A DNA stretch of 56,682 nt from a virus. Its lineage: Duplodnaviria > Caudoviricetes. The stretch covers positions 1 to 56,682 of the IMG/VR virus record IMGVR_UViG_3300032086_002223. One strand, 5' to 3'. The notes under the pieces are model-generated. The model searched no databases. It saw nothing but the letters and a program-made list of their open reading frames with translations, and was not told the origin of the DNA. Every line of letters begins with the position of its first letter. Position 1 is the first letter of the stretch. Below, in pieces: positions 4,060 through 38,125 of the stretch. The position numbers and the translations under genes are program-made.

Positions 4060-4077
4060 GACCCCCCGAAGGGGGTC
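4060..4077 (-). terminator. GC-rich C(UUCG)G hairpin (weak terminator or RNA element)
   Basis: GACCCCC-TTCG-GGGGGTC perfect 7-bp stem followed by TTATT. Confidence 0.6.
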
Positions 4078-4162
4078 ACCTTTGACAGTGCCATGTATAC
4101 CTGACCTGCCTCGCCATCGAATCACATTCGTCTCCTAGAGATATATCTTCAATGACTACTTA

Positions 4163-4170
4163 TATTTAGT
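4163..4170 (-). promoter_or_regulatory. Variant T4 late promoter (ACTAAATA)
   Basis: TAAATA core immediately after the gp23 terminator. Confidence 0.6.
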
Positions 4171-4172
4171 GC

Positions 4173-4200
4173 AAAAAAAAGGACTCCGAAGAGTCCTTTT
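4173..4200 (-). terminator. Rho-independent terminator of gp23
   Basis: GGACTC-TTCG-GAGTCC followed by T8; UUCG loop typical of T4-like phages. Confidence 0.9.
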
Positions 4201-4219
4201 TAAAAGTTAAAACTTTTAA

Positions 4220-5530
4220 TTATAGAATATTGCTTACAGCCATTTTTCTATAGTAGAAGTTAGAACCATTTGATGCAAGTCCACTTGCTGGTGCATTACC
4301 AACGAATGGGTTTGAAATCATTCCATATCTAGTTTTGAAACCGATTTTTGGTTGGAATGTGTTCTCACCAACTGCACGTACCATTTGCAATGGAACGTAT
4401 GGGCAATAGAACATACCTGCGTCGTATGGGTTTGAACCTCTGTAACCAACTGTTAGGTAGTTAACAGATGCATAAGGGTCAATATAGACCTTTACTCTTC
4501 CGTTAAGAACACCAGCAAATGTATTACCTGTGTCGTCTACGTTTAAGTTAGTTGCTAAAGCTGGTGCATAATCTAATACTCCTGCCATTGAAAGAGCAGA
4601 TGCTACGTCTGAAGAACATAGGATAAAGTTACCTTTACCTCTTCTTGATTCTTTAGCTATACTGTTTGATTCTCTTTCGATTTGGAATAATAGACCTTTG
4701 AACTTCTCAACTGACCATCTACCGTTAGCATCAACGTCTAGGTTGAATGTGCCGGGTGATGCAGTGTCTGCTGCTCCAGTTTTTGCTTGAAGGTTAACAC
4801 TTCTTACAACTTCTCTATTTATTTCTGCTAAAATTTCTGATGAAAGAATGTTAGCAAGTTCTGACTCAGCGTCAAGACCATGAATTGCTTTAAGGTCTTG
4901 TGCTAATTCTAATGTGTATTCAGCTTTAAGTGCTCTTGACTTAGCAGTTACAGTTGCTTTCTCAATTGTGAAAGACATTTCTGCAAAACTATTATTTGAT
5001 GCGTCACCCAATGCTTCAGCAGTTGCTGTAGACATACCTGAACCAGTTGTTGATTCGTATGATGGTGATGATGTATCAAATGGGTCACCGATAGCTGCTT
5101 GCTGTGCGCCTGCTGCTGTCGATTGTGCTGCACTTGAATATGATGAAACGGGTTCGTTGATTCCTAATGCTTCTGATTTACCCTCTCTACCCGCTGACGG
5201 ATAGTCGTTATATCTTGCTTTCATAGCGAAGATAAGACCTGTAGGGCCAGTCATTGGTTGAACACCGCAAATGTCGTAAGCTACGAGATTTGGCATTGCT
5301 CTTCTAACCAATGAAATAAGGATTGGTTCCCAGTTGCTAATTGCACTTGAACCAGTTGCATTCAATGGAGCTGCTTCCGATAGGGTTGCTCTATCTTCGT
5401 TTAATGCATTCTCTTGGTTCTCCAAGATAACAGCTGTGACTGCTCTCTTGTAGTTGTCCTCGATTTTTGGTAAATCGGAATGCTCTAAGATAGGTTCCCA
5501 TTTCTTTTGTAAATCTTCTGATAAGAACAT
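4220..5530 (-). CDS. gp23: Major capsid protein gp23
   Basis: LISLVRRAMPNLVAYDICGVQPMTGPTGLIFAM, SRALKAEYTLELAQDLKAIHGLDAE, FQPKIGFKTRYG. Confidence 0.98.
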   Translation of the reverse strand: MFLSEDLQKKWEPILEHSDLPKIEDNYKRAVTAVILENQENALNEDRATLSEAAPLNATGSSAISNWEPILISLVRRAMPNLVAYDICGVQPMTGPTGLIFAMKARYNDYPSAGREGKSEALGINEPVSSYSSAAQSTAAGAQQAAIGDPFDTSSPSYESTTGSGMSTATAEALGDASNNSFAEMSFTIEKATVTAKSRALKAEYTLELAQDLKAIHGLDAESELANILSSEILAEINREVVRSVNLQAKTGAADTASPGTFNLDVDANGRWSVEKFKGLLFQIERESNSIAKESRRGKGNFILCSSDVASALSMAGVLDYAPALATNLNVDDTGNTFAGVLNGRVKVYIDPYASVNYLTVGYRGSNPYDAGMFYCPYVPLQMVRAVGENTFQPKIGFKTRYGMISNPFVGNAPASGLASNGSNFYYRKMAVSNIL

Positions 5531-17247: not shown

Positions 17248-17255
17248 TATTTAGG
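17248..17255 (-). promoter_or_regulatory. Variant T4 late promoter (CCTAAATA)
   Basis: TAAATA core 5 nt before the ATG of the 88-aa gene. Confidence 0.5.
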
Positions 17256-18003
17256 TAATCGTATCGTCCTCAAGGGGTTCCAATGGAGGCATATGACCAG
17301 TAATGTCTTGATAGTTTAGGGGATATCCATCTTGGTCTAAATCAAATACCCATGGATAATATCTATTGGTTAATGACTCACCAATCTTTATTTGATTATT
17401 CATTTGATAATTGATATTGAAAGATATACTGTATCTTTCTTTTTGTGTCATGTTGGGTTCTACCATGTGCATTAACCCACTAGGGAACAACATTAATTTA
17501 CCAGTAATGGGTTGTTTATGAGATGACATTTGTATCATAGGTGATGGTGGCATGTCGTGTACTACCTTTTCGTCTGTGTCTATGAAATCAATATCTCCCT
17601 CGTCTCCATCTGCATGAATATAGAATACACCACTATACCAACAACCATTATGTAAGTGAGGTGAGTTCCAACACATATGTCCATTAATATTTGCCCAAGA
17701 GTTTCCAATCTGTACAGACACATCACCATTATTGAATCCATAAAAAGGTAAGACTTCATCATCAAACATACGTGTGATTCTGTTCATTAATTTTTGAAAT
17801 CTAGGATTTGATTCACATCCATCATTAGATTGCCATCCATTTCTATTAGATACCATTCTACCCTCATCCCTAGCTCTCATACCATCCATTTCATCTTTCA
17901 ATGATTGTAGGTATTCATATGATACACCCTGTCTCTCATGCAAGTTTTCATCTGTTAGTTGTCTATGAAAAACATAGTTTGGGAATAATAATTCTACTGC
18001 CAT
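17251..18003 (-). CDS. 2OG-Fe(II) oxygenase, HxH type (TIGR02466-like)
   Basis: SN.NGWQS, WANIN, PHLH..W.SGVFYI, LMLFPSGLMHMVEPN, RYSISFN. Confidence 0.88.
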   Translation of the reverse strand: MAVELLFPNYVFHRQLTDENLHERQGVSYEYLQSLKDEMDGMRARDEGRMVSNRNGWQSNDGCESNPRFQKLMNRITRMFDDEVLPFYGFNNGDVSVQIGNSWANINGHMCWNSPHLHNGCWYSGVFYIHADGDEGDIDFIDTDEKVVHDMPPSPMIQMSSHKQPITGKLMLFPSGLMHMVEPNMTQKERYSISFNINYQMNNQIKIGESLTNRYYPWVFDLDQDGYPLNYQDITGHMPPLEPLEDDTIT

Positions 18004-18006
18004 AAT

Positions 18007-18882
18007 CTAATCCTTAATTTTTTCTCGAAGAGGTTTCATCTTTAAAGTTTGTTTCACTATTTTCTCTTCTTCCTCTTCATTTATATTCAGTAACTGGAAT
18101 GGGTCGTGAAATTCTCTTTCAAAGAGGGGTGCCTTTGGAGTCCATGGTTTTTCTACTTCTCCACCACCCTTTTTAAATAGGGTTTCATTTCCTTCTTTTA
18201 CATATTTGTGATAGAGAAATGGATTGTGTTCTTTTTGATATTGTTCGGTTTTAATCAAATCGATAGATGCACTCCATGTCTCTCTTCTGTATGGAAGTAT
18301 ATGCACTATTGGTGTCCCAGCAGGAATGACAAACTCCTTTCTTGTCTTGGGATAGAGAATGACTAAACCGTTTAAATCTCCACCTGTATATTTATCAGTG
18401 TCCATTACACCTTGCCAAGCTTGAAAGAATCTATTTTGAAATAGAAATGGGTCTAGGTATAAACATGAATACCCTAATGGTGTTGTTATACTCCATGGAA
18501 TTCTAATTTTAACTGCATTATTATCTTTTAAATCTTCTTCGACATCTGCCTTTGCATATTCAAAGGTGGGGAATTGACTTCTAGGATGACCATCAGTTTC
18601 ATAATTAGGATTGTGGGGACACTTTGCAAATTGTCCTAACTCATATCTAGGTGAACCATCCAAACTATCTTTCGGATATTCTATTTTTATATCTTCAACA
18701 CATACAATGTAATAACCAGTACCCAACACGTCCATCATAGAAGGACACATCTTAATGTTATCTCTTCCGTCTTGCATAACCTTCATCTGTTTCCACCAGT
18801 TTGGGTGTATGTGTTTTGCAACTACGGGACGATATTCTTTAAATGCTTTTTCGTTGGTGGTATTAAATTCTATCGTTGGCAT
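18007..18882 (-). CDS. Conserved phage protein often found with 2OG oxygenases (DUF6065-like)
   Basis: IKMCP...D....GY, PWSITTP.GYSCLY..P, GVMDTD.Y, IPAGTPIVHILPYRRE; family named from recall. Confidence 0.65.
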   Translation of the reverse strand: MPTIEFNTTNEKAFKEYRPVVAKHIHPNWWKQMKVMQDGRDNIKMCPSMMDVLGTGYYIVCVEDIKIEYPKDSLDGSPRYELGQFAKCPHNPNYETDGHPRSQFPTFEYAKADVEEDLKDNNAVKIRIPWSITTPLGYSCLYLDPFLFQNRFFQAWQGVMDTDKYTGGDLNGLVILYPKTRKEFVIPAGTPIVHILPYRRETWSASIDLIKTEQYQKEHNPFLYHKYVKEGNETLFKKGGGEVEKPWTPKAPLFEREFHDPFQLLNINEEEEEKIVKQTLKMKPLREKIKD

Positions 18883-19552
18883 AATAATCTAGTTCATTCT
18901 CTAGTCTACATGCATCACCCCTTATAACTAAGGATTGTCTACATGCATATTCACATTTTTCATTTGGAGCATCTGCATTGTGTGGTATACTCCCATCAAA
19001 CATTAATAGTCTGTTTGGTTTATAATCTACTTGAGCAATTTGATGTTCTAAAAACTCTTCTTTAAAACCATCTATTTTTTTTGCTTCTTCGTTATAAAAT
19101 CTTAGTGGCCCACCCCAATCGTCTTCCCAGTATTCGGTGTTATACCATAAGAAAGATATATTAGTTTTATTATCGGGGGAACTATCTTCATGTATTGTTC
19201 CTTGAAGACCATAGGTCTGTCCATTCATACCTGCGTATTGAAAATTTTCCCACCTAAATCCAAATTCTGTTTGAAGTTTCCAATCTAGATATCTAATTAG
19301 ATAAGTATCTTGCATATGATAGGTGTGGTCTCTAATCTTTTTATCCTTACCCTCATAGAACGTTGCACCCCAAAATAGATGACGTATCTTACCATTTCTA
19401 TTTACTTGATTATTCTGAGCCCATATAGTTCTTGAGGTGAGTCTCCTCATATTATACATGATTTCATAGGTTGCCCAGTTATCTAAGACGTAAATTTTAT
19501 CTAAAGGAAAACTTTGTATCTTAAAGGGTTTATCGAGATATACAACTTCCAT
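18863..19552 (-). CDS. 2OG-Fe(II) oxygenase, prolyl-4-hydroxylase-like
   Basis: NGQT, H-E-D, W..DWGG.L.F, YKPNRLLMFDGSIPH, R.SL. Confidence 0.85.
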   Translation of the reverse strand: MEVVYLDKPFKIQSFPLDKIYVLDNWATYEIMYNMRRLTSRTIWAQNNQVNRNGKIRHLFWGATFYEGKDKKIRDHTYHMQDTYLIRYLDWKLQTEFGFRWENFQYAGMNGQTYGLQGTIHEDSSPDNKTNISFLWYNTEYWEDDWGGPLRFYNEEAKKIDGFKEEFLEHQIAQVDYKPNRLLMFDGSIPHNADAPNEKCEYACRQSLVIRGDACRLENELDYYANDRI

Positions 19553-19555
19553 ACA

Positions 19556-20122
19556 TTACTGCTGACCTTGAAATTGCTGTACTGGAGGTAATTGTAATAG
19601 GTCGTCACAATAATCATCAAAGTCTTTGAGTTGGTCTTCTCTAGTCCTAGTGATTGTACCTACCACTTGTTCTAAGACACTATACGAACTATCTGCAAAT
19701 TCTAATACTCTTCTTGCATCTGACCTGTAAGGATGGTTTGAATCTTCTCTACCGATGTATGTAGCTTCATAAAGATTTTCAATTCTCATCTCGATACATA
19801 GTTGATAGATGTTCTTTGCAACCACTTCATACAAATCATCGATGTATTGGTTGTTTAAATTTGTTCCATCGGGTGCTTCTGCATCATCAATAAACTTCTC
19901 GATATTATCTCTATCTGAGTCTGTTAATGGATGTTTTTCGGATGCATCCCAGTTGGTTGGATTTACTTCTAAGATTTTGAATTCTTCTTGGTCGTATACG
20001 AGTCCTTCGTATTCAAAACCTAATTCGGGTTTGTCTACATTTTGATAAACAATTCTTAACCCAGTTTCTTTGATAATAACTAACGTATTAGTTGCATCAT
20101 ATATTAAAGCTCTATTTGCCAT
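19556..20122 (-). CDS. Hypothetical acidic protein (possible fibre chaperone)
   Basis: 188 aa overlapping the upstream stop; no catalytic motif recognised. Confidence 0.75.
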   Translation of the reverse strand: MANRALIYDATNTLVIIKETGLRIVYQNVDKPELGFEYEGLVYDQEEFKILEVNPTNWDASEKHPLTDSDRDNIEKFIDDAEAPDGTNLNNQYIDDLYEVVAKNIYQLCIEMRIENLYEATYIGREDSNHPYRSDARRVLEFADSSYSVLEQVVGTITRTREDQLKDFDDYCDDLLQLPPVQQFQGQQ

Positions 20123-21566
20123 TTTCTTTCACCTTTTTGTTTTCAATCTCTAAGAGATTTTTATAATAATTATATCTACCAATTTGTTGAACACTATCAT
20201 TAAAGTTTTCAATCCATGGCCCACCGTTTGTGTAATGAATCATTCTATGTTTCTTTACATTGTATGGTTCTTCTGAATAACCTTCAGTCCAACAACAATC
20301 ATCTTGAAGTTTTACCACGTTATCTGTCCATTTAAATTGATGTAGATATTGACCCGATTCTGTGTTTACAACTTCGGGTGTTAGTTTTCTACAATCCTTA
20401 TGACCATTGTTAAATATCATAAGACTTGACCATAGTTTTTTAGGATACCATACATTCTTTTCACCACCTAATTTTTCTGTAATACCTTTATCAGAAAAAT
20501 CATGATGGAAACATGCAACGGAATCAGTATGTCCTAGTGAATAGAATAAGTGTAACATATCTTCTGTGAAGATAAAGTCATCATCCACAAACATACTGAC
20601 ACCTTGATATTTCTCTAAGTATGGTATTAAGAATCTACTGTAAGTAAACTCTGTTGATTGGTTTGCGTAATCTCTAGTATACTCGGGAATCTTAGAAACG
20701 TCAAGTTTTTTAATCTTAACAAATGCATTCCATGGTACACTAGACAAGTCTCCCATTTTGTTGTTGTATCTTTCGATAGAATGTTGTATACTTTTTATAC
20801 AAACATCTGAGACTTCACCGTGTCTACTATCGTATCCTACGTATATAGTTGGAGTCTCTCCATTAAATAATGTATAGTGTAAGTAGTCGTTTGCTTCGGT
20901 ATAGTCACCTCTCATATCTCTGTTTTGATGAGCTTCAATAATACCTTGATTCCAACAATAGGATACATGATTCATATCGGGATAGAGATTATTTTTAAAT
21001 GTGTGAACTATCCACTCAGAGAATGATAGAGGTTTATGGTCATAACATACATCATATGCATCCCATACTAAACATTCAGTTTCCCATCTTTGTAAATATT
21101 TGATTGCAGAATATCTTCCAGTGCCGGGGTGGACAAAGTATCTAATCTCATCTGCATCTGCAGTAGGAGGCCAATACAACACACCTTGTGGCCCGTATTC
21201 AATTCCTTTGTTTCTGATATCTTGAACTAAGAAGTGTAATTTAGTTGCATGGTAGAGACGAGAAGAGTTCTCATCACCATTTATTCTTTCAAAGTCTTCT
21301 GCATCTACAGCTGCATCACCAACTTGTAATGCACGAAAGAAATCTCTAATTTTATGAGAAGAATCTTCTTGATAACTGACACCATACTTCTTGTGTAAGT
21401 CACCCAATGATACTATTTTGGGTTTGTATATACGTGTGATTTCATCAAACTTTTCTTTGATTTTAATCATCACTTCTTTCTTAGGTTTTGTTTTATTCAA
21501 CCCACCAAGATGGTCGTTGAAAGAACTTTTCACACTCACTGGGTCGGGTAAATCAATGTACTTCAT
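20112..21566 (-). CDS. Fusion of a ParB/Srx-like N-domain and a GT-A glycosyltransferase
   Basis: C-half IYVGYDSR, STEFTYSRFLIPYL, FVDDDF (DxD), YPKKLWSS, LHQF.W, IHYT.GGPW; N-half LVQDIRNKGI..P..YFVHPGTGRYSA. Confidence 0.8.
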   Translation of the reverse strand: MKYIDLPDPVSVKSSFNDHLGGLNKTKPKKEVMIKIKEKFDEITRIYKPKIVSLGDLHKKYGVSYQEDSSHKIRDFFRALQVGDAAVDAEDFERINGDENSSRLYHATKLHFLVQDIRNKGIEYGPQGVLYWPPTADADEIRYFVHPGTGRYSAIKYLQRWETECLVWDAYDVCYDHKPLSFSEWIVHTFKNNLYPDMNHVSYCWNQGIIEAHQNRDMRGDYTEANDYLHYTLFNGETPTIYVGYDSRHGEVSDVCIKSIQHSIERYNNKMGDLSSVPWNAFVKIKKLDVSKIPEYTRDYANQSTEFTYSRFLIPYLEKYQGVSMFVDDDFIFTEDMLHLFYSLGHTDSVACFHHDFSDKGITEKLGGEKNVWYPKKLWSSLMIFNNGHKDCRKLTPEVVNTESGQYLHQFKWTDNVVKLQDDCCWTEGYSEEPYNVKKHRMIHYTNGGPWIENFNDSVQQIGRYNYYKNLLEIENKKVKENGK

Positions 21567-21622: not shown

Positions 21623-24600
21623 TTAAGACGATATTGGAGATGCAGGCCATGTAGTTGTTCCATCCCATTTCTGAACCGTATTTCTATACGGTTGCTGATA
21701 TGCATATGGTTGTATACCTACTGCAACTTTTTGACGTGTTGTCTGTGCTGGTCTCTGTCTTGAAACTCTCTGCAATACCTGTACTCTAGTTGGTCTCTGT
21801 CTTGAAACTCTTTGTAGTACCTGTGTTCTAGCAGGTCTCTGTCTAGTTACATTTTGAAGAACTTGTACTCTAGCAGGTCTTTGTCTAGTTTCAATGTTAT
21901 TGTACTGATACCCCTGTTGTACTGGTCTTCTTCTTGATTCAATGTTATTGTACTGATAACCTTGCTGTACAGGACGTTGTCTACTCTCAGTATTATTGTA
22001 CTGATAACCTTGTTGCACTGGTCTTTGTCTATTTACAATATTGTTATATTGATAACCTTGTTGCACTGGTCTTTGTCTTGTAACAACATTATTATATTGA
22101 TAAGTTTGCTGAGTAGGTCTTCTTCTTGTTTCTTGAATATTTACCTGTACTCTTGCTGGTCTCTGTCTTGAAACTCTTTGCAGTACCTGAACTCTAGCTG
22201 GTCTTCTTCTAGTTTCAACATTGTTGTATTGATAATTCTGTTGAACAGGTCTTTGTCTTGTATCAACATTATTATATTGGTAACCTTGTTGTACAGGTCT
22301 TTGTCTAGACTCAACGTTGTTATATTGATAACTTTGTTGTACAGGTCTTCTTCTAGGTGAAGGTTGGTTTACCTGAACCCTAGCTGGTCTTTGTCTAGAC
22401 TCAACGTTGTTATATTGATAACTTTGTTGTACAGGTCTTCTTCTAGATTCCTGATTGTTATATTGATAACTTTGTTGTACTGGTCTTCTTCTAGACTCTA
22501 CATTATTGTACTGATAAGACTGTTGTACTGGTCTTCTTCTTGTTTCTTGAATATTTACCTGTACTCTTGCTGGTCTTTGTCTAGACACACGTTGCAACTG
22601 TTGTACTCTTGTTGGTCTACGTCTTGATACACGTTGCAGAACTTGAGTTCTTGCTGGTCTCTGTCTTGACACCCTCTGTAATTGTTGTACTCTAACTGGT
22701 CTACGTCTTGGTACCTGATTATGATACTGGTATGCCTGTTGTACAGGTCTTCTTCTTGGTACCTGATTATGATACGTATAAGTTTGTTGAGTAGAAGTTT
22801 GTACCCTATTATGATAAGTGTATGCCTGTTGTACTGGTCTTCTTCTAGGTACCCTATTATGATACTGATACGATTGTTGTACTGGTCTTCTTCTAGGTAC
22901 CCTATTATGATACTGATACGATTGTTGTACAGGTCTACGTCTAGGTACTCTATTATGGTAGGTATAAGCTTGTTGTACAGGTCTTCTTCTTGGTACCCTA
23001 TTATGGTAGGTATAAGCTTGTTGTACAGGTCTACGTCTTGGTACCTGATTATGGTAGGTATAAGTTTGTTGTGAACTTACCTGTACCCTGTTGTGATACT
23101 GATACGATTGTTGTACTGGTCTTCTTCTAGGTTCCTGATTATTATACTGGTAACTTTGTTGTACTGGTCTACGTCTAGGTACCCTATTATGATAGGTGTA
23201 CGGTTGTTGTGTAGGTCTTCTTCTAGGAACTCTATTATGATAAGTGTAAGGTTGTGGTTGTTGAGCAGGTTGTTGCATCTCATTCATCTGACCTTGTGGC
23301 CAGCTGACACCAGCAGTTGCAGCGAATGTTACTTGGTGAACTATTGACCTATCTCTACTTCTTGTAAATACATCACCTTTGTCTCTGACAAATAGTGGGA
23401 ATCCACCACCACCACCACCGCCAGGTGATTGTGACTGCATCTGACCTTGATGCTTCCAAGCAAATGTTGCAGTTTGACCACTCATAATCTTTGCACCAAA
23501 CTGTGAATAATATGGTGCTTGTCCTGCAAAAGGTATTGAGCCTTGTCTTTGTGGGTTAGGAATGTTTTGAACACTTGTCTGTGCAGAGTTAAAATCTGCA
23601 CCAAATTCAAAGTTTACACCCTCAAATCTTAAGGAACCCTGCCACTGTCTCTGTCCAGCAAACGGACTTCTATAATGATAACTATTAACACTTGTTGTTT
23701 GGTTCTGTGGGCCATTACCTACGTAATATGGTGCTTGTGTTCCTGAGAACTGAGCCTGTGGCCCTCTAAACATCATGTTTCCTCTAAAGGAATCTCTTTC
23801 ATGACCTTTACCATCGGGTCTAGCTGGGAAACTGTACTGACTAGCAGTTGAAATACGAGAATCACTCATGGGGAAACCAAAAAACTCGAAAGAAGGTAAT
23901 AATACAGTCCTTTGTCCATAAGGTGTCTCAACCTTAATACCAGCCATGTCACCACCTCCACCGTAAATATTTGCATAGTGGATGTAAGCAGTGTGTGCGT
24001 TGTTTCTTACTGTTACCTGTCTTGTTCTAGTTGTAGGTTGGTTCAACTGATACGATTGTTGTACTGGTCTTCTTCTAGGTTCCTGATTGTTATACTGGTA
24101 AGACTGTTGGACTGGTCTACGTCTTGGTACCCTATTGTGATAGGTGTACGGTTGTTGGACTGGTCTTCTTCTTGGTACCCTCTGTAATTGTTGTACTCTA
24201 ACTGGTCTTCTTCTAGATTCCTGATTGTTATATTGATAACTTTGTTGTACAGGTCTTCTTCTAGGTTCCTGATTGTTATATTGATAACTTTGTTGTACAG
24301 GTCTTCTTCTAGGTTCCTGATTGTTATATTGATAACTTTGTTGTACAGGTCTTCTTCTAGGTTCAGTGTTATTATATTGATAACTTTGTTGTACTGGTCT
24401 TCTTCTAGGGCCAGTGTCATTATATTGATAACTTTGTTGTACTGGTCTTCTTCTAGGTGAAGGTTGGTTTACCTGAACTCTAGTTGGTCTTTGTCTAGAT
24501 TCAGTGTTATTATATTGATAACTTTGTTGTACTGGTCTTTGTCTAGATTCAGTGTTATTATATTGATAACTTTGTTGTGTACTTGCCTGTACCCTGTTGT

Positions 24601-25744
24601 GATACTGATAAGATTGTTGTACACTAGTTTGTACCCTGTTATGATACTGATAAGCTTGTTGAGTAGAAGCTTGAACTCTATTATGATATTGATAAGTCTG
24701 TTGAGTTGATGCTTGTCCTCTGTTATGATAAGTATATCCTTGTTGTACTGGTCTCTGTCTTGTTACCCTATTATGGTACTGATATGCCTGTTGTACTGGT
24801 CTACGTCTTGGTATCCTATGATGGTAGGTATAAGCTTGTTGTACAGGTCTACGTCTAGGTACTCTATTGTGGTACGTATATGTTTGTTGTGTACTTGTTT
24901 GTATCCTATTATGATAAGTGTATGCCTGTTGTACAGGTCTACGTCTTGGTACTCTATGGTGGTACGTATATGTTTGTTGTACTGGACGTTGTCTACCTAC
25001 CCTGTTATGGTACTGATACGATTGTTGTACAGGTCTACGTCTAGGTACTCTATTGTGATAAGTGTACGTTTGTTGAGTAGAAGTTTGTACCCTATTATGG
25101 TACTGATACGTTTGTTGTGTAGAAGCCTGACCCCTATTATGGTAAGTGTACCCCTGTTGTACTACACGTTGTCTATTAACCCTGTTATGATACTGGTATG
25201 ATTGTTGTACTGGTCTCTGTCTTGGTACCCTATTGTGATAGACATAAGTCTGTTGTACTGGTCTCTGTCTTGGTACCCTATTGTGATAGGTGTATCCTTG
25301 TTGTACTGGTCTCTGTCTTGTTACCCTATTATGGTAACTATAAGTTTGTTGGACTGGTCTACGTCTCTGTACCCTGTTATGGTACGTATAGTTTTGTTGA
25401 GTATTCTGTTGAACACGATTGTGATAAGTGTAATCTTGTTGAACACTCGTTTGAACACGATTGTGATACTGATACGTTTGTTGTGTAGATGCTTGTACTC
25501 TGTTATGATATTGATACGACTGTTGCACAGTGAATTGGTAAGGTTGTTGGAAGTTATAAGGTCTTGTTCCAACTGCTGGTCTAGTAGCAATTACTTGGGC
25601 TGGCATCTGTCCTGATGCCTTTATCCATCCAGTAGGTGTCTTTGTATAGACAGAATCAACTGCCGACCATTCTGTTGGGGATGTCTTTACCCAACTACCT
25701 GTTGTATTTACCCACCCCGTAGGGTTCTTAATTCGTTGTGCCAT
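21623..25744 (-). CDS. Giant mirror-repeat protein (1373 aa), putative hairpin stalk adhesin
   Basis: Two arms of 14/16-aa R/Q/Y/H repeats flanking a non-repetitive domain of about 259 aa; N-terminal W-x-K-T..W motifs; follows a fibre gene. Confidence 0.9.
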   Translation of the reverse strand: MAQRIKNPTGWVNTTGSWVKTSPTEWSAVDSVYTKTPTGWIKASGQMPAQVIATRPAVGTRPYNFQQPYQFTVQQSYQYHNRVQASTQQTYQYHNRVQTSVQQDYTYHNRVQQNTQQNYTYHNRVQRRRPVQQTYSYHNRVTRQRPVQQGYTYHNRVPRQRPVQQTYVYHNRVPRQRPVQQSYQYHNRVNRQRVVQQGYTYHNRGQASTQQTYQYHNRVQTSTQQTYTYHNRVPRRRPVQQSYQYHNRVGRQRPVQQTYTYHHRVPRRRPVQQAYTYHNRIQTSTQQTYTYHNRVPRRRPVQQAYTYHHRIPRRRPVQQAYQYHNRVTRQRPVQQGYTYHNRGQASTQQTYQYHNRVQASTQQAYQYHNRVQTSVQQSYQYHNRVQASTQQSYQYNNTESRQRPVQQSYQYNNTESRQRPTRVQVNQPSPRRRPVQQSYQYNDTGPRRRPVQQSYQYNNTEPRRRPVQQSYQYNNQEPRRRPVQQSYQYNNQEPRRRPVQQSYQYNNQESRRRPVRVQQLQRVPRRRPVQQPYTYHNRVPRRRPVQQSYQYNNQEPRRRPVQQSYQLNQPTTRTRQVTVRNNAHTAYIHYANIYGGGGDMAGIKVETPYGQRTVLLPSFEFFGFPMSDSRISTASQYSFPARPDGKGHERDSFRGNMMFRGPQAQFSGTQAPYYVGNGPQNQTTSVNSYHYRSPFAGQRQWQGSLRFEGVNFEFGADFNSAQTSVQNIPNPQRQGSIPFAGQAPYYSQFGAKIMSGQTATFAWKHQGQMQSQSPGGGGGGGFPLFVRDKGDVFTRSRDRSIVHQVTFAATAGVSWPQGQMNEMQQPAQQPQPYTYHNRVPRRRPTQQPYTYHNRVPRRRPVQQSYQYNNQEPRRRPVQQSYQYHNRVQVSSQQTYTYHNQVPRRRPVQQAYTYHNRVPRRRPVQQAYTYHNRVPRRRPVQQSYQYHNRVPRRRPVQQSYQYHNRVPRRRPVQQAYTYHNRVQTSTQQTYTYHNQVPRRRPVQQAYQYHNQVPRRRPVRVQQLQRVSRQRPARTQVLQRVSRRRPTRVQQLQRVSRQRPARVQVNIQETRRRPVQQSYQYNNVESRRRPVQQSYQYNNQESRRRPVQQSYQYNNVESRQRPARVQVNQPSPRRRPVQQSYQYNNVESRQRPVQQGYQYNNVDTRQRPVQQNYQYNNVETRRRPARVQVLQRVSRQRPARVQVNIQETRRRPTQQTYQYNNVVTRQRPVQQGYQYNNIVNRQRPVQQGYQYNNTESRQRPVQQGYQYNNIESRRRPVQQGYQYNNIETRQRPARVQVLQNVTRQRPARTQVLQRVSRQRPTRVQVLQRVSRQRPAQTTRQKVAVGIQPYAYQQPYRNTVQKWDGTTTWPASPISS
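21746..23254 (-). repeat. C-terminal repeat arm (42/48-nt coding units)
   Basis: 32 full units (20 long, 10 RxRP-only, 2 YxY-only) plus partial end units. Confidence 0.95.
24032..25525 (-). repeat. N-terminal repeat arm (42/48-nt coding units)
   Basis: 32 full units (20 long, 10 YxY-only, 2 RxRP-only) plus a partial first unit. Confidence 0.95.
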
Positions 25745-25757: not shown

Positions 25758-28061
25758 TTAAGAGTAAGTTATCCATACATCTCCAACTTGCCCAGCACCT
25801 GATGTGGGGGCAGAAGAATGTATGAAAGTGTTTCGAAATGCTCCGTCTGAAGCACCAATGGTTGTAAAACCTGTAGTACCTTTACCAGTAACTGATAATG
25901 CATCCCCGATAGTTACATCATCGGGTAGACCTATTGTTACTGTTGCATTTTCACTACCTGAACCTGAGACTGTAATCTCATTTGCAGTTCCTGATATTCC
26001 TGATACGTAATTTCCTGTTGTGTCTGTTGCTAATGCAACTGAGTTTGCTTGTATAGTTGTGCTTATGGATATACCTGCTGAACCGTCAAAGTTTGCAGTA
26101 CCAACAACATCTCCTGAAAGTGCTATTGCTCTTGTCGTTGCTAATTTAGTAGCTGTAGATGCGTTACCTGTTACATCACCAGTGACATCACCATAAAGTC
26201 TTCCTGCTTGTATGTTTGCATTAGTGAGTGTTAATGCACCAGTAGATGCACCTGTTGCCGTTGTGGTTGCAAATCTAACTCTATCTGAACTTTCATCCCA
26301 ACCTACGAAAACATTATCACCAGTAGAACCTCTTTCAAGAATAAGACCTAAGTCATTAGAGTTTGCACCCGTGTTACCTGAACCAAGTTCAATCAATGCA
26401 TCTTCGATTGTTGTATTTGTTGCACTGTTTGTTACTGTAGAACCATTGACTGTTAGGTCACCAGTGACTACTACGTCACCACTTGCATTTACGTTTGCGA
26501 ATGTTACATTACTGTTTGTTGCAACTGCCTGACCGATACTAAATGCACCACCTGAATATGATACACCAGTTCCAGCACTTAGATGAGCTCTAACTTCTGA
26601 TGCACTTGGGCCTGTATATGTGATAACACCAGTAGATGAATTGTATGCAAGTGAACCATCTCCACCTGAATCTGTTACTGATATAGCTCCTCTTGCATCT
26701 GAATCTGCATACATTGTAGGTTCTGAGTATGAGATTACACCTGATGTTGAGTTATATGCTAAATCACCACTTACTGAAATTGAACTTCTTGCATTTGCAG
26801 TTGTGAATTTAGTTACACTAAATGCACCTGTTGATGAGTTATAAGATAGGTCACCAGCTGCAGATAATAAACCTCTTACTTCTGCGTCTGTTCTTTCTGT
26901 AAATGAGAATGCACCAGTTGAACTATTATATGATAAATCACCACTTGCAGATACTAATCCTCTGATACTTGCATCTGATAAACCAGCAAGTGTAAGTGTT
27001 CCAGCTGCATCGTCATATGTTGATGTGATGTTTGTTCCACCAATTATCAATCCATTTACGATGTCTTCTATTTCTTCTTCAGTTTTTCCTGAAGAGTTGA
27101 TTGTAAGTGTTCCGTTTGCATCGTCATATGATGTTGTTATGTTAGTACCAGCAGTGACTAATGCATTTACTCTGTCGTCTACTCTTTCGTTTGTGAAAAA
27201 TAGATTTCCATTTTCTGATAAATCACCTGTGTCTAAAGTAACTGAACCACCAAGGGATACGGTGTTTGAGTTAATTGATAATGAACTGTTAGAAAGTTTT
27301 CCGTTAACAATAGAACCTGCTAACATATCATTTGTGATACCACCAGCTTTTACTTGAACTGTATCTGATGCAAGTTCTAAAGAACTGTCATCTACTTGAA
27401 CTGCAAGTGTTACTGCACCTGAAGTTCCACCACCAGTCAAACCATCTCCTGCTGTTACAGCTGTGATGTCTGCAGAGTTTGTGTTTGCAACTGTAAGTGT
27501 ATTAGCTACATCATCATATGTTAATGATACACCAGTTCCTGCTGTAAGTAATCCATTTACTCTATCGTCTACTCTTTCGTTTGTAAAATAAAGGTTTGTT
27601 GACCCTTCTGTAATCTCGTCTGTATTATCTTTACCCGCTACTTGAGAATCTACATATGCTTTAATCGATTGTTGTGTTGCAGCGTGAGTTGCAGAGTTTG
27701 AAGCCATGTTGTCTTCATCTTTGAAATCGATTGCGATGTCGTCTGCATTTACAGTGATACCTGTACCAGCACCAACATTAAGTGTTGCATCACCTGAAGT
27801 TGCAGTACCTGTTAAACCAGCACCAGCGTTAACTCCAGTGATATCACCGACATTACCTGTAATTGTTAGTTGGTTAGCTGCATCATCATATGATAATGAG
27901 ATACCTGAACCTGCTTGTAAAAGACTTGCAACTCTATCGTCCACACTTTCATTAAGTGCAGTTGCAGAAATGGAACCTACATATGTTCCGTCTGATTGGA
28001 TGACCTCTGTTCCACTAACTGATAGTCCATTCTTGACATTAAAATTCTTTTCACCTGCCAT
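25758..28061 (-). CDS. Tail fibre protein (767 aa)
   Basis: G/S/T-rich; repeats AG.GI...YDD..NTLTI, EGSTNLYFTNERV, SYNSSTG; ends AP..GDVW. Confidence 0.85.
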   Translation of the reverse strand: MAGEKNFNVKNGLSVSGTEVIQSDGTYVGSISATALNESVDDRVASLLQAGSGISLSYDDAANQLTITGNVGDITGVNAGAGLTGTATSGDATLNVGAGTGITVNADDIAIDFKDEDNMASNSATHAATQQSIKAYVDSQVAGKDNTDEITEGSTNLYFTNERVDDRVNGLLTAGTGVSLTYDDVANTLTVANTNSADITAVTAGDGLTGGGTSGAVTLAVQVDDSSLELASDTVQVKAGGITNDMLAGSIVNGKLSNSSLSINSNTVSLGGSVTLDTGDLSENGNLFFTNERVDDRVNALVTAGTNITTSYDDANGTLTINSSGKTEEEIEDIVNGLIIGGTNITSTYDDAAGTLTLAGLSDASIRGLVSASGDLSYNSSTGAFSFTERTDAEVRGLLSAAGDLSYNSSTGAFSVTKFTTANARSSISVSGDLAYNSTSGVISYSEPTMYADSDARGAISVTDSGGDGSLAYNSSTGVITYTGPSASEVRAHLSAGTGVSYSGGAFSIGQAVATNSNVTFANVNASGDVVVTGDLTVNGSTVTNSATNTTIEDALIELGSGNTGANSNDLGLILERGSTGDNVFVGWDESSDRVRFATTTATGASTGALTLTNANIQAGRLYGDVTGDVTGNASTATKLATTRAIALSGDVVGTANFDGSAGISISTTIQANSVALATDTTGNYVSGISGTANEITVSGSGSENATVTIGLPDDVTIGDALSVTGKGTTGFTTIGASDGAFRNTFIHSSAPTSGAGQVGDVWITYS

Positions 28062-32941: not shown

Positions 32942-35179
32942 TTAAGTGTTCGGGTCTGTCAATTGTGAAGTTGGTACACTTTGGTGAGTCTTTTTCAATG
33001 TACCACTGTCATTTATATAGACTTCATCCATTTTTCTTAATGTACCAGCATCGTTAATCCATATCTGTTTGATTTTTGCAAGAGGCCCGATTGTTCTTGT
33101 TGATGGGAACGGTTGTCGTACTGGTCTACGTCTTGGTATCTGATTATGATAGTTATAAGTCTGTTGCACAGGTCTACGTCTAGGTACCCTATTGTGATAC
33201 GAATAAGTTTGTTGTAAATTTTTCTGTCTTGATACTCTATTGTGATATGTGTAATCTTGTTGCACACTTCTTTGTCTATCTACTCTATTGTGGTATTGAT
33301 ACGACTGTTGCACACTACGTTGTCTTGATGACCTTTGTAATACCTGAACCCTAGCTGGTTTTTGTCTAGTTTCTTGTGCATTTATTGGTACTCTAACAGG
33401 TCTTCTCTTTGACTCACTATTGTTATACTGGTATGTTTGTTGTACTGGTCTTTGTTTAGTTATAACCTGATTCACCTGAACTCTTGTTGGTCTTTGTCTT
33501 GTTACGGCTTCATTTACTTGAACTCTAGCAGGTCTTTGTCTTGACACACGTTGTAATACCTGAACCCTAGCTGGTTTTTGTCTTGATACTACTTCATTAA
33601 CCTGTACTCTTACTGGTCTTCTTCTATCTTCATCTACGTTTCTCTGAGTTCTTACAGGTCTACGTCTTGGTACCTGATTATGATACGAATAAGTTTGTTG
33701 AGTAGTCACCTGTTTTTCATTTAGAGTTCCACTTGGGAATGCCGGTGTTGGTGTTGATGATGCAGCCAAAGTAACACCTGAGACAAATGTCTCTTGTCTT
33801 GCATATCCTCTAGGTCTTATCCTTACAAAATAACCATCATTATCTCTCAATCGAAGAGGCACCTGGCCACCTGGCGTTGGTGCCGCTTGAACCTGTGATG
33901 TAAAGTCTCCTACATTTTCCCATGCAAGTTTAATTTGTTGACCACTATTAAGTTTAATAGCATACTGAGAAGCATTTGGATGTTGTGAAAGAAACTCAAC
34001 TCCCTGAGTACCTTGTCCTTGAGGGTGTCCTTGTCTTTGTGGATTAGGTACACTTTGGTTTTGAGGTGCTGGTGAAGCTGGACTAAAGTCAGCTGCAAAG
34101 ATTGTATTTTCTCCAACATACCTTAATCTAGAATTCCATTGTCTTTGTACTTGACCGCTGGGGAATTGAACACCTGAGTAATTCCAAGTATTAGCAACAG
34201 CAGGTGCTACAGTATTTTGCATCCCAGTTCCAGTATAGTAAGGAGCTGCTGTTTGTGTGAATGAAGCAGTTGGCCCCCTGAAGAACATTGCACCCCTGAA
34301 CGAATCACCTTCATGAAAATTTCCTGACCTTGTACCTGTTGGTGTAGGAAAAGGATATTGTTGAGGTATACCATTTATTTGTTGTTGCATTGGAAAACCC
34401 ATAAACTCGAAAGAAGGTATGGTGCCTGTTACTTGACCATATGGTGTCTCCATCTTAATAGCCGCAGCATCACCCCCACCACCATATACACGCATATAAT
34501 GAATGTAATTTGAGTGTGCTTGTGACTGAACGGGTCTCTGTCTATTCTCAGTATTGTTATACTGGTACGACTGTTGAGTATTCTCTTGTGTTCTATTATG
34601 ATACACATACACCTGTTGAGTATTCTGTTGAACACGATTGTGATAAGTGTAATCTTGTTGAGTAGATGTCTGTACTCTGTTATGATACTGGTATGTTTGT
34701 TGAGTATTCTGTTGAACACGATTATGATAAGTGTAATCTTGTTGAACACTCGTTGGAACACGATTGTGATACTGATAATCTTGTTGTACAGGTCTCTGTC
34801 TAGCTACTCTATTATGATAAGTGTATGTTTGTTGAGTATTTTGTTGTACTCTATTATGGTAAGTATATGGTTGTTGAGTATTTTGTTGTACCCTGTTATG
34901 ATACTGATATGATTGTCTAGCAGGTCTCTGTCTTGTTACAACATTATTGTACTGATAGGTTTGTCTAGTAGGTCTCTGTCTTGTTACAGCATTATTGTAC
35001 TGATAGGTTTGTCTAGTAGGTCTCTGTCTAGATTCTACGTTGTTATACTGATAACTTTGTTGAACAGGTCTTTGTTTGTTTTCTTGATTGTTGTACTGAT
35101 ATGACTGTTGAACAGGTCTTCTATCATTGAAGGGTTGTTGAAAACTAGTCCCTGTATTGATATATGTTTCATTTGACAT
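32942..35179 (-). CDS. Second mirror-repeat protein (745 aa), paralogue of 21623-25744
   Basis: Same repeat alphabet in two arms; homologous central domain; C-terminal IWIND.G...VYIND.G motif. Confidence 0.9.
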   Translation of the reverse strand: MSNETYINTGTSFQQPFNDRRPVQQSYQYNNQENKQRPVQQSYQYNNVESRQRPTRQTYQYNNAVTRQRPTRQTYQYNNVVTRQRPARQSYQYHNRVQQNTQQPYTYHNRVQQNTQQTYTYHNRVARQRPVQQDYQYHNRVPTSVQQDYTYHNRVQQNTQQTYQYHNRVQTSTQQDYTYHNRVQQNTQQVYVYHNRTQENTQQSYQYNNTENRQRPVQSQAHSNYIHYMRVYGGGGDAAAIKMETPYGQVTGTIPSFEFMGFPMQQQINGIPQQYPFPTPTGTRSGNFHEGDSFRGAMFFRGPTASFTQTAAPYYTGTGMQNTVAPAVANTWNYSGVQFPSGQVQRQWNSRLRYVGENTIFAADFSPASPAPQNQSVPNPQRQGHPQGQGTQGVEFLSQHPNASQYAIKLNSGQQIKLAWENVGDFTSQVQAAPTPGGQVPLRLRDNDGYFVRIRPRGYARQETFVSGVTLAASSTPTPAFPSGTLNEKQVTTQQTYSYHNQVPRRRPVRTQRNVDEDRRRPVRVQVNEVVSRQKPARVQVLQRVSRQRPARVQVNEAVTRQRPTRVQVNQVITKQRPVQQTYQYNNSESKRRPVRVPINAQETRQKPARVQVLQRSSRQRSVQQSYQYHNRVDRQRSVQQDYTYHNRVSRQKNLQQTYSYHNRVPRRRPVQQTYNYHNQIPRRRPVRQPFPSTRTIGPLAKIKQIWINDAGTLRKMDEVYINDSGTLKKTHQSVPTSQLTDPNT
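33107..33712 (-). repeat. C-terminal repeat arm of the 745-aa protein
   Basis: 5 RxRP-only, 1 long, 2 RxRP-only, 4 long units plus end units. Confidence 0.9.
34529..35128 (-). repeat. N-terminal repeat arm of the 745-aa protein
   Basis: 5 long, 2 YxY-only, 1 long, 5 YxY-only units plus a partial unit. Confidence 0.9.
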
Positions 35180-35202: not shown

Positions 35203-37929
35203 TTATACCACATACCACAAATGTCCATTGTTTGTACCTGAAACACTTGAGGGAGCTGTTGAAACTACTTCATAATCTGATTCGACAAAGTCTGAATCTA
35301 TCTTAACACCTTTCCTTGTATTTATAGAGAGAACACCACTACTATGTGTAAGACCATTACCTGCTACTGAAGACTTAAGTCTTATCTCACCACCATCACC
35401 AGCTGCATGGAACTCTAATCCACCACTTACATTTAAGTCTGCAGAAATTTTACCTGTTGATGAATTGTAGTCAATACCTGGCCCACCTGACAAAGCTCCT
35501 CTTGCATTTGTATCACTATATTGTGCAGCTGCAGAGAAAGAAAGTGTATTTGCAGTATCATCGTAAGTTACAGTGATATTACTGTGAGTTCCACTAGTAA
35601 TCATTCCAGCTGCAGCGTCTTGAGCTCTTTCAGTTGTAAAGTACTGTGTACCACTTGTACCAGTTGCAGAGGGGTCTTCTGTCAAGTTACTTGTATTAGC
35701 TGCTGCTATTCTAGCATCTGCTCTTGCATTTGTAAAGTAAAGGTTTGTCCCTTCTGATAAATTTGTTGTTGAGAAACCACTCAATGATACAGATGCATTT
35801 AACTTATCATTATCATCATCGTGAGTAAATGAGATACCACTATGTGTCCCACCAGTAATTAGTGTTGCAGTCGTATCTCTAATATATTCGGGGTCGACTG
35901 CAAATTCTAATGTACCTTCATTGTTGTTATCATCATTATATGTTGTAGATATACCTGTATGTGAACCATTTGAATTTACTATTAAATTTGCAACAGCATC
36001 TCTTGCTCTTTCAGGAGTGAAGTATAAGTTTGTTGAACCTTCTGCAAAACTGTCGGTGTTTTCTCCAAGCGTATGAGGTGCAAAACGATTATTAACCCCA
36101 TCCCATGTGAGTGCTTGTCCAGCTGCAATACCTGAGATAGTTACATCTGACAAATCACCAATACTTGCAGCTCCTATTCTTGCATCAGCTCTTGCATTTG
36201 TAAAATATAAGTTAGACCCCTCAGTAATATCACCTGAGTCTCCACTCATCTCACTGAGTTCGTCTTGTAAATCTAATTGTCCATCAACATATGTTTTGAC
36301 TGCTAACTGTGAAGGAATTAAAGTGTCTGATGCACTTGCAAAAGTATTGTCTGTATCAATAGCTGCTTGTACTCTTGCATCTGCTCTTGCATTTGTATAA
36401 TATAAGTTTGCAGGGTTTTCATCGATGTGAGAAGTATTTAATTCTATGTTTGCACTTCCATCAAAAGATACACCTGATATATTTCTTGCAGTTTCTAATA
36501 CTGTTGCACTTGCAGCGTTACCACTTGTGTCTTGATTACCTGTTTGGTTAACGCCAGGCAAATTGATATTTGCACTTCCGTTGAAGGATACACCACCTAT
36601 TGTTCTTGCAGTCTCTAAAGTTGTTGCTGTACTTGCATTACCAACTAGATTACCTGTTGTAGTATCAATATATGCGTTTGCAAATCTAACACCATTTGAA
36701 CCTAAGTCTCTTGCACTATCTCCATCGGGAATAATATCACTATCAAGGACACCAGTAAATGTAACTGTGTCTGCACTTGTATTACCTAAGTTTACGTTAC
36801 CATCAAGATTGGTTTGTCCATCTACTGTTAGAGTTGAATTAAAATCTACGTTTCCATGTACTTCTAGTGTAGTTGAAATGTCAACACTTCCATCTTGGTT
36901 CAACGTACCTACGTTGTGTATACCATCGGTTGTTGTAGAACCATCAACATCTAGATTACCCTTAATGTAAGTGTTACCTGTTGCAGATGCAACTGTAAAC
37001 TTATCAGTATTGACATCAAAGTCACCACCAATGTGTCCTGTTCCTGATGCATCTAAATTACCGTTTAGGTCTAGATTACCATCTATTGTTGTTCCGTCTA
37101 ATGTAGTTGCACCATCTACGTTTAGGGTTCCATCGATGTCTGCATTACCGTTTGCATTGATGTTACCAGCAGATGTAATAGATACACCTGTTGAACCGAA
37201 TCCACCACCGACATCTAGATTACCTACGTTGAAATCACCACTGAAGTCTCCTGTGACACCCCCTGTGATGTTTCCTGAACTAATTGATAGTGTGTTGTCT
37301 GTAAGTGTAGGTGCAGATAGTGTATGACCTGTATCGAGGTCTACATCACCATTGATGAATGTTTTACCTTCTATCTGAACTACGTAACCTGATTGTAATG
37401 TTGTGACAATTGAAGCAATGTCACCGTTAATAATAACACCACTATCGTTGTTATTATAAATTGTGTTCTCTAGTGTTTCAGTCCAAAATGTTTGTACTGC
37501 AGTTTGTCCTGCTACATCAAGGAATGAACCTGTAAATGCAACCACTCTGATAACATCACCAGCTGTTGCACCTGATGTAAGTGTAACCCTAGTGTGATTA
37601 CCGTTTGCATTTACATTTGATATTGTGAAATCTGTTGAGAGTTGTTGTAAGTCACCGTTTTTAAATACGAGGAATCTGTGGTCTCTAAACTCTAATATGT
37701 TTTGGTCGGGTGAACTGTCTGCACCATCGAATACTGTTTGACCACTAGTTGCAGTATAAATGAATCCTTGAAAAAAGAATTCTCTATCTCTCAAATCATT
37801 TACTGCATCAACAAGAGTAGTTTTATCCTGAGTACGTAAGCCACCAATATCCCCAACATCTGATGCTAGTTCGTTATATGACTGTCTCCACTCTTCTAGT
37901 GTAGTATGTTGACTAACTGTTTTGGCCAT
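35203..37929 (-). CDS. Long fibre protein (908 aa)
   Basis: N-terminal T.EEWR...NEL coiled anchor, G.L.VDG repeats, L.TAR.I.GVSF.GSANI twice, several NLYFT.ARA repeats; ends AP..G.LW. Confidence 0.85.
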   Translation of the reverse strand: MAKTVSQHTTLEEWRQSYNELASDVGDIGGLRTQDKTTLVDAVNDLRDREFFFQGFIYTATSGQTVFDGADSSPDQNILEFRDHRFLVFKNGDLQQLSTDFTISNVNANGNHTRVTLTSGATAGDVIRVVAFTGSFLDVAGQTAVQTFWTETLENTIYNNNDSGVIINGDIASIVTTLQSGYVVQIEGKTFINGDVDLDTGHTLSAPTLTDNTLSISSGNITGGVTGDFSGDFNVGNLDVGGGFGSTGVSITSAGNINANGNADIDGTLNVDGATTLDGTTIDGNLDLNGNLDASGTGHIGGDFDVNTDKFTVASATGNTYIKGNLDVDGSTTTDGIHNVGTLNQDGSVDISTTLEVHGNVDFNSTLTVDGQTNLDGNVNLGNTSADTVTFTGVLDSDIIPDGDSARDLGSNGVRFANAYIDTTTGNLVGNASTATTLETARTIGGVSFNGSANINLPGVNQTGNQDTSGNAASATVLETARNISGVSFDGSANIELNTSHIDENPANLYYTNARADARVQAAIDTDNTFASASDTLIPSQLAVKTYVDGQLDLQDELSEMSGDSGDITEGSNLYFTNARADARIGAASIGDLSDVTISGIAAGQALTWDGVNNRFAPHTLGENTDSFAEGSTNLYFTPERARDAVANLIVNSNGSHTGISTTYNDDNNNEGTLEFAVDPEYIRDTTATLITGGTHSGISFTHDDDNDKLNASVSLSGFSTTNLSEGTNLYFTNARADARIAAANTSNLTEDPSATGTSGTQYFTTERAQDAAAGMITSGTHSNITVTYDDTANTLSFSAAAQYSDTNARGALSGGPGIDYNSSTGKISADLNVSGGLEFHAAGDGGEIRLKSSVAGNGLTHSSGVLSINTRKGVKIDSDFVESDYEVVSTAPSSVSGTNNGHLWYVV

Positions 37930-38125
37930 TTGTTAAATTCCTCAGAATATTCTTTATTTCTTTCATCTCTTCTCTTAGAGTATTTATTTCATTTATTTGT
38001 TTTTGAAACACTGTTTTTCTCTTCTTATAGATTGCAAGTGTCTCACTATCATTGTTGATGATAGCACCTGATTCCTCATCTCTATAGAGATGTTGTTCTC
38101 CTTGTACTCTTGCCAATTCTTTCAT
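37913..38125 (-). CDS. Small coiled-coil hypothetical protein
   Basis: 70 aa; V.G...L.RD..SGAIIN then coiled coil; overlaps both neighbours. Confidence 0.8.
   Translation of the reverse strand: MKELARVQGEQHLYRDEESGAIINNDSETLAIYKKRKTVFQKQINEINTLREEMKEIKNILRNLTNGQNS

Follow-up and report, generated by a model that had tools for sequence, protein, structure and literature searches.

Mirror-complementary repeat arms in a putative tail-fibre protein of an uncultured marine T4-like phage

Why should the second half of a phage protein read like its first half taken backwards, with certain repeat units exchanged for their counterparts? The question is raised by a gene of the viral record IMGVR_UViG_3300032086_002223 (Caudoviricetes), whose whole length of 56,682 nucleotides (nt) was analysed and is referred to below as the window; it is a 56.7-kb linear record, estimated to be 31% complete. 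The gene (21623–25744, − strand, from the list of open reading frames, ORFs) codes for 1373 amino acids (aa) followed by a stop codon. A first-pass annotation had described it as encoding two arms of repeats that mirror and complement each other on either side of a central domain, and had proposed that the chain runs out and back as one long hairpin. We call this protein the long form, since the same record also encodes a shorter paralogue with the same organisation, the short form.

The long form has five parts, all on the − strand. The N-terminal region (aa 1–73, 25526–25744) ends in a cap, AVGTRPYNFQQPYQFTV, and is the best-conserved part (92–97% identity to the orthologues described below). 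It is followed by the N-arm (aa 74–577, 24014–25525), by a non-repetitive central head rich in Gly, Gln and Ser (aa 578–829, 23258–24013; 75–83% identity), by the C-arm (aa 830–1333, 21746–23257) and by a C-terminal region (aa 1334–1373, 21626–21745; 87.5% identity) with a second cap, AVGIQPYAYQQPYRNTV, the two caps being near-repeats of each other. A head of 252 aa is thus flanked by two arms of exactly 504 aa.

The arms were cut into units by script, in a frame where each unit starts at QQxYxY or RVQV. A unit opens with slot A, which holds either the six residues QQxYxY or the four residues RVQV; a tetrad occupies the middle slot, and slot B, which closes the unit, holds either xRxRPx (6 residues) or QxST (4). 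L units combine QQxYxY with xRxRPx, S units carry QxST instead of xRxRPx, and R units carry RVQV instead of QQxYxY. In this notation, the 33 units of the N-arm read S3 L5 S2 L3 S1 L3 S4 L2 R1 L5 R1 L3, and the 33 units of the C-arm read L3 S1 L5 S1 L2 R4 L3 R1 L3 R2 L5 R3. The C-arm is the unit-wise reverse complement of the N-arm: when it is reversed and S and R are swapped, it matches the N-arm at 33 of 33 units. The earlier claim that every S faces an R and every L faces an L is therefore borne out by the script parse. The equality of the arms also stands (504/504 aa, 33/33 units), but the figures first given for it (488 aa, 32 units, and a single L, 'L1', in the eighth block) do not; the difference comes from a frame that starts one slot earlier, and the pattern is the same.

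How exceptional is this order? The units of the arm can be arranged in about 2.3 × 10^10 distinct orders, and none of 200,000 shuffles of the unit order reached 33/33, the best one matching at 28 units. With three unit types, the control comparisons give 15/33 when the arms are compared in the same order, again 15/33 in the same order with the swap, and 21/33 in mirror order without the swap. A further layer becomes visible when the L units are split according to their middle tetrad, which is either HN[RQ]V (and similar) or a non-H, NNxE-like sequence. This split yields four types (LH, LN, S and R). In 33 of 33 rungs there is an H tetrad on exactly one side and a non-H tetrad on the other; the pairing is LH with LN and S with R, and no unit type is self-complementary. 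In this four-type scoring the parallel order with the swap gives 3/33, a shift by one unit 20/32, and larger shifts 8–13 matches. The mirror-complement unit order is real and extremely non-random.

The correspondence extends from the units to their slots. In all 33 rungs, and in both directions, slot A stands opposite the matching slot B, six residues against six and four against four, as had been proposed for YxY and RxRP in an antiparallel register. With the middle tetrad, this makes three independent layers on which the arms complement each other. Where an S replaces an L, slot B is shorter by two residues and two Arg positions become small residues; the R unit that faces it is also shorter by two residues, and two Tyr positions become Val. 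A loss of two residues on one strand is always matched by a loss of two residues on the other. Since an S:R rung changes on both strands, a large–large contact would become a small–small one and the register would be kept. Judged from the sequence, the mirror order implies an antiparallel pairing in which QQxYxY would lie opposite xRxRPx and RVQV opposite QxST, and the aperiodic unit order appears to fix a single register, because a shift by one unit lowers the match to 20/32.

The same rule is found in relatives of the long form. Orthologues of 1379 aa (L001) and 1382 aa (L002 and L003) are encoded in viral contigs; those of L001 and L002 are built of 33 + 33 units, with arms measuring 508/508 aa. 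Their 21 distal rungs have the same pattern as in the window, while 7 of the 12 head-proximal rungs differ, the facing unit being altered each time. One odd rung of these proteins has QS/ARYSY opposite RSxY.., with 16 residues against 16.

The short form (P0018, 745 aa; 32942–35179, − strand) was found by searching the window's own record and was translated from it. It consists of an N-arm (aa 24–217, nt 34529–35110), a head (aa 218–493, 33701–34528), a C-arm (aa 494–687, 33119–33700) and a C-terminal domain of IWINDAGTLRK repeats (32945–33118), all on the − strand. Its arms have 13 + 13 units and 194/194 aa and are mirror-complementary at 13 of 13 units. The full C-arm expected from the N-arm of another relative, P0003, had been worked out beforehand, and P0018 carries exactly that C-arm. 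Its orthologue on contig L013 shows 13 matches and no gap, and in both of its arms rung 8 is H:N instead of S:R. P0020 has 12 matches and 1 gap, P0019 and P0022 have 11 matches and 2 gaps each, P0022 with an order of its own (NNRNHSHSHSSSN), and P0003 has 8 matches and 5 gaps.

The complementarity count takes in nine proteins parsed by script: the long form of the window, L001, L002, P0018, the L013 ORF, P0020, P0019, P0022 and P0003. It leaves out L003, whose unit pattern is identical to that of L002, the truncated P0002, P0007 and P0021, and P0010 with seven members of its cluster, which contain irregular stretches of 44 aa and were parsed by eye. In these nine proteins there are 167 matching rungs, no mismatch and 10 units without a partner. 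P0010 (807 aa, 35% identical) reads, by eye, R5, 44 irregular residues, LN4, R, S, head, S, LH4, 44 irregular residues, S5; it follows the rule with the opposite polarity, its R units being in the N-arm. In all, the rule is obeyed by six different unit orders. The two paralogues do not complement each other (7/13 for the best cross-match), which, together with the effect of the one-unit shift, agrees with the earlier proposal that the unit order acts as a register barcode. These comparisons support the view that complementarity is kept as a rule, and not as a fixed pattern, across relatives with other unit orders.

At the DNA level, the gene contains no inverted repeat of at least 18 nt, which rules out a DNA or RNA palindrome as the cause of the mirror. 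The ORFs of the + strand within the gene code for unrelated Leu/Ser/Ile-rich peptides; those of 130–162 aa at 22682–23074, 24713–25201 and 25202–25615 (+ strand; rich in Leu, Ser, Ile and Trp) are by-products of repeated codons, not genes. Between the window and the two orthologues, the distal arms show a non-synonymous divergence (dN) of 0.05–0.08 and a synonymous divergence (dS) of 0.54–1.12, with a dN/dS of 0.06–0.11, and units with an identical peptide differ at up to 11 of 42 nt. These low ratios and the synonymous differences indicate that the exact sequence of the arms is under strong purifying selection.

What conformation could such arms adopt? All 66 units of the long form have an even length (14 or 16), and the irregular stretches of P0010 are even as well. 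In the three Y-type unit classes conservation alternates, with a mean entropy of 0.43–0.64 bits at even positions against 0.98–1.25 at odd ones; the conserved even positions are Q2, Y4, Y6, N8, V/E10, R12, R14 and V16. The prolines of the L units, at positions 11 and 15, share one parity. Even lengths and alternating conservation are what would be expected of a long extended strand with one conserved face. The arms contain 38 and 46 prolines per 504 aa (8–9%). Collagen-like or Gly-dependent repeats are ruled out by the 0–7 Gly per arm.

Covariation between facing units, which had been expected to lie on an anti-diagonal, partly does so. Mutual information links columns 11–16 of H units with columns 1–6 of the facing non-H units, and column 1 with columns 13 and 15, as an antiparallel arrangement would have it, but the signal comes from a few rare rungs and the shift controls were survived only in part: the true pairing exceeds the one-unit shift for most of the listed pairs, with unequal sample sizes, and one control shift is higher for the pairs (9,9) and (5,9). 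We consider this residue-level covariation suggestive.

From this pattern we infer the following arrangement. The protein would be a virion fibre encoded in the cluster of host-recognition genes of a marine T4-like myophage (see below), and its two repeat arms would bind each other antiparallel, unit against unit and with their residues in register. The chain would run out to the far tip, where the central, variable head would be formed, and then run back, and both conserved termini would end up together at the virion end. The aperiodic unit order would set one register, different in each paralogue. That the arms pair antiparallel, be it within one chain or between chains, is in our opinion likely. 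For the more specific proposal that one chain folds back with the head at its tip, the sequence leaves us evenly balanced, and we are less confident still that the legs take an extended, β-like conformation, forming a β-hairpin zipped by Arg–Tyr cation–π contacts. At about 0.33–0.34 nm per residue, fully extended arms could at most reach about 170 nm in the long form, where the first-pass annotation had put the upper estimate near 160 nm, and about 65 nm in the short form.

A bolder formulation can be given, which we put forward tentatively, with somewhat less than even confidence. The arms may embody a peptide pairing code akin to base pairing (QQxYxY with xRxRPx, RVQV with QxST, HNRV with NNxE-type tetrads) whose elements, in aperiodic order along the two arms, programme the zipping of one chain in a unique register; it would run through more than 30 rungs and, with the chain fully extended, along at most about 170 nm. 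The barcodes of the paralogues would avoid mis-pairing, and new tips would be acquired by swapping a central cassette together with its own matched rungs.

The distribution of conservation along the chain fits the predicted fold-back. In ordinary tail fibres it is the N-terminus that is conserved, while the tip, at the C-terminus, varies. In both paralogues described here, the termini are best conserved and the centre least. For the long form of the window, compared with either orthologue, identity is 92–97% in the N-terminus, 89–93% in the distal arms, about 70% in the proximal arms and 75–83% in the head, and the divergence is symmetric on both sides of the head. For the short form it is 100% in the N-terminus, 88–100% in the C-terminus and 47–93% in the head. 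A variable 'tip' in the middle of the chain is what fold-back would predict.

The same complementarity could serve to pair arms of different chains, the N-arm of one protein being zipped to the C-arm of another. This would give a rod of about two arm-lengths, whose middle would hold the heads side by side and whose ends would each carry one N-terminus and one C-terminus; a higher-order lattice would also be conceivable. Pairing between chains makes the same prediction that unit i faces unit 34−i, and the complementarity data fit it equally well. However, it would put the variable head in the middle of the rod and conserved termini at both of its ends, which is hard to square with a host-recognition fibre attached by one end; besides, pairing within the chain should be kinetically favoured by the tethering of the arms. 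We therefore regard pairing between chains as unlikely, while keeping it as the first alternative to fold-back.

It may also be that the arms, instead of binding each other, each bind some third partner that is symmetric or polyanionic, be it nucleic acid, a polymer of the cell surface or another fibre protein, and that their mirror order echoes this partner; or the arms may be disordered, sticky regions rich in Arg and Tyr. The very high positive charge of the protein (net +182, isoelectric point, pI, of 11.5) speaks for this explanation, and compositions rich in Arg and Tyr are common in nucleic-acid-binding and condensate-forming regions. Against it, selection by a symmetric partner would favour a mirror of identical rather than complementary units, and the mirror without the swap reaches only 21/33. 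The matched two-residue length changes and the absence of any mismatch in 167 rungs would be unexpected, and disordered linkers rarely show a dN/dS of 0.06–0.11 with unit-exact conservation. We judge this explanation improbable.

That the mirror is a by-product of duplication, gene conversion or faulty assembly, with no structural meaning, is hardly credible: tandem repeats do evolve by unit duplication and assemble poorly, and short contigs from public runs break inside the arms, but there is no inverted repeat in the DNA, the antisense of the arms encodes unrelated peptides, no known mutational process both reverses the order of units and swaps their type, and misassembly would break a mirror rather than create one that six unit orders obey.

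Several observations weigh against the proposed fold-back fibre. Both arms are strongly basic, with net charges of +76 and +92, and two such strands should repel each other unless Tyr–Arg contacts, counter-ions, a polyanion or a modification compensate. The R-type units do not show the even/odd alternation in conservation, and the fine residue-level couplings are weak and in part reflect zones along the arm. Most of the compensated differences between orthologues adjoin the head, where one exchange of a central cassette could explain them, which would leave few independent events, although each central cassette must itself have evolved under the complementarity rule. The virion location is deduced from the gene neighbourhood only, a structural module on the same strand. 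The structural models obtained are unusable: AlphaFold2 gave, for aa 390–1017 (12 units per arm and the head, 6-row alignment A3), a mean predicted local distance difference test score (pLDDT) of 29.6 and a predicted template modelling score (pTM) of 0.22, and for aa 530–877 (3 units per arm and the head, 9-row alignment A7) a mean pLDDT of 29.4 and a pTM of 0.18. Every residue is below a pLDDT of 50 in both models, which carry no weight either way; the same is true of the complex prediction of aa 74–223 of the N-arm with aa 1184–1333 of the C-arm, which gave no answer (score 0.00).

Unequal arms also count against the proposal. The first-pass annotation had named homologues with unequal or unmirrored arms as evidence against a hairpin; unequal arms do occur, in four of the nine parsed full-length proteins (by 1 unit in P0020, 2 in P0019, 2 in P0022 and 5 in P0003) and, by 1 unit, in three of the eight members of the P0010 cluster, but mirroring holds, and the remaining units of these proteins pair with zero mismatches. 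In the P0010 cluster, defined at 90%, these three members lack one of two identical tandem S units of the C-arm, and the N-arm is unchanged. Either mismatch in arm length is tolerated or these are assembly errors. The whole-unit insertions and deletions in one arm (P0012, P0013 and P0017; P0019, P0020, P0022 and P0003) stand on different single-nucleotide polymorphism backgrounds; they may be real slippage or recombination, or the collapse of tandem repeats in short-read assemblies. Logan contigs from 4 runs of 4 studies are uninformative on unit order or indels: none spans the gene, they break inside both arms, and their 'joints' are ambiguous repeat paths.

Does anything similar exist? In the needle of the T4 fibre protein gp37, domain D10 is made of residues 811–881 and 1010–1026, the chain going out to the tip and back, and seven irons, bound to histidines of the three chains, hold the needle together (PMC6957217). 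The likeness is that of a T4-like phage fibre in which the chain reaches out to a receptor-binding tip at the distal end and returns, a course which for the present protein is deduced from its sequence; the T4 needle is short, whereas the present protein would be almost wholly out-and-back (2 × 504 of 1373 aa). The iron-binding histidines of the gp37 needle belong to His-x-His (HxH) motifs, and there is no HxH motif in any of the four arms of the two paralogues. Unlike T4 gp37, the present legs use an aperiodic, unit-by-unit complementary repeat code; to our knowledge no such code occurs in gp37. When the whole protein was compared by phmmer with all chain sequences of the PDB, no match was obtained at expectation values (E) up to 1, and so no similarity to gp37 or to the gp12 collar, and a head-centred profile (A2, 5 sequences, 470 profile positions) had only a chance-level match in the PDB (E 0.78).

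In SMC-type arms, the protein folds back from a hinge to form antiparallel coiled coils of 50 nm (PMC5346154). SMC, Rad50 and MukB share with the proposed fold a central tip domain, equal arms from the N- and C-terminal halves of one chain that pair antiparallel, and termini that come together; this is an analogy of architecture, not homology. Their arms are α-helical heptad coiled coils with ABC ATPase halves at the termini, whereas the present arms contain 8–9% proline and are built of even units of 14 or 16 residues. No ATPase or other Pfam domain was found in the long form, the only Pfam match being Fibrinogen_BP at 18.2 bits against a cut-off of 50, and there is no PHROGs v4 match at E up to 0.001. 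Neither P0018 nor P0010 matches a Pfam family, and P0018 has only a weak match to a PHROG of unknown function (9.7e-06).

The resemblance to annotated phage tail-fibre families (PHROGs, Pfam) lies in the position among tail-fibre and baseplate genes, the large size, the repeats and a variable, putatively receptor-binding part; in these families the variable part is C-terminal, whereas here it is in the middle of the chain. The head domain, which has 8 relatives in the representative library, has no Pfam or PHROG match; its best feature score in the ESM Atlas is 0.78, below the usable level, and a word-index search at lengths of 755–2403 aa gave no match. Literature searches turned up neither these repeats nor arms that are mirror-complementary, and no described equivalent of the architecture was found.

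If the proposed pairing is true, the arms are a natural, addressable and register-specific protein zipper, made from simple units of 14 and 16 residues with a readable rule; such a design principle is known for nucleic acids and, more loosely, for coiled coils, but not for extended repeat proteins. The protein would then also represent a new architecture of host-recognition fibre, with a tip encoded midway along the gene and the two termini at the virion, which would change how receptor-binding modules are searched for and how their recombinational exchange is read.

Regarding the genomic context, all large genes of the window are on the − strand and form a T4-like structural module. It comprises, in order, a gp5-like hub, gp6-like and other wedge proteins, a 2210-aa DUF4815 protein, several tail-fibre-like proteins and neck proteins, followed by the large terminase, sheath, portal, scaffold and major capsid protein. 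The latter is 63–65% identical to those of the Pelagibacter phages Mosig and HTVC008M and of the Methylophilales phage Melnitz. The gene of the long form lies between the baseplate and fibre genes and the neck genes. Pelagimyophages are described as having a hypervariable 'host recognition cluster', which includes tail fibres and glycosyltransferases, between VrlC and gp14, a neck gene (PMC7029224). The mirror-arm gene is within the stretch that corresponds to this cluster. The 2210-aa ORF (38125–44757, − strand; DUF4815 match at 1.5e-65) is probably the large structural protein that bounds the cluster in pelagimyophages.

Each paralogue has a fibre-like gene immediately before it. Directly upstream of the long form, a gene for a 767-aa protein (25758–28061, − strand) matches phrog_697, a structural protein (1.8e-39), and phrog_7389, a tail fiber (1e-08), and this order is kept in L001 and L002; its product is a possible partner of the long form. 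A tail-fibre-like gene of 908 aa lies directly upstream of the short form (35203–37929, − strand), with matches to several PHROG tail-fiber families (best 7.2e-40) and to phrog_697, and this order is kept in L013. The 767-aa and 908-aa proteins may each make up the proximal half of a fibre in two parts.

Directly downstream of the long form, within 17251–21566 (− strand), are genes for a 484-aa protein (phrog_28018, with a DDD motif and no Pfam match) and for an acidic ORF of 188 aa, and two 2OG-Fe(II) oxygenases are encoded at 18863–19552 (PF13640) and 17251–18003 (PF13759), also on the − strand. The gene of the 484-aa protein is also found after the long form in L001, L002 and L017. It is a speculation that the 484-aa protein, the 188-aa ORF and the oxygenases modify or chaperone the Pro/Arg-rich fibre.

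How widespread is the family? Searching 50,697 GenBank phage records by tblastn with either paralogue gave no match, and scans of metagenome and viral contigs with alignment A2 recovered only the L001 and L002 contigs again. The family is rare and, so far, appears to occur only in uncultured marine T4-like phages. Seventeen DNA runs, which come from 5 seawater or marine metagenome studies dated 2020–2025, contain the gene of the window nearly unchanged (88–92% of the sampled words), so that it is not a rarity of one sample. Among RNA runs, three contain 8–28% of the sampled words of the gene.

Last, a scan with the C-terminal domain found only two further viral contigs, L020 and L021, which are unrelated. 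On L020, an unrelated viral contig with a high guanine–cytosine content, a 155-aa ORF (4013–4480, + strand) directly follows a gene for a 1082-aa fibre-like protein and starts with three WxNDAGTWRK repeats. We do not claim that the two paralogues carry the same domain at opposite termini: the N-terminus of the long form has no significant BLASTP match in P0010, the best E being 0.07, in the repeats, and it scores an E of 0.03 against the L020 ORF. The C-terminus of the short form, for its part, matches the L020 ORF with an E of 3e-11, and the WxNDAGTWRK repeat seems, from these sequences, to be a widespread fibre-associated module.

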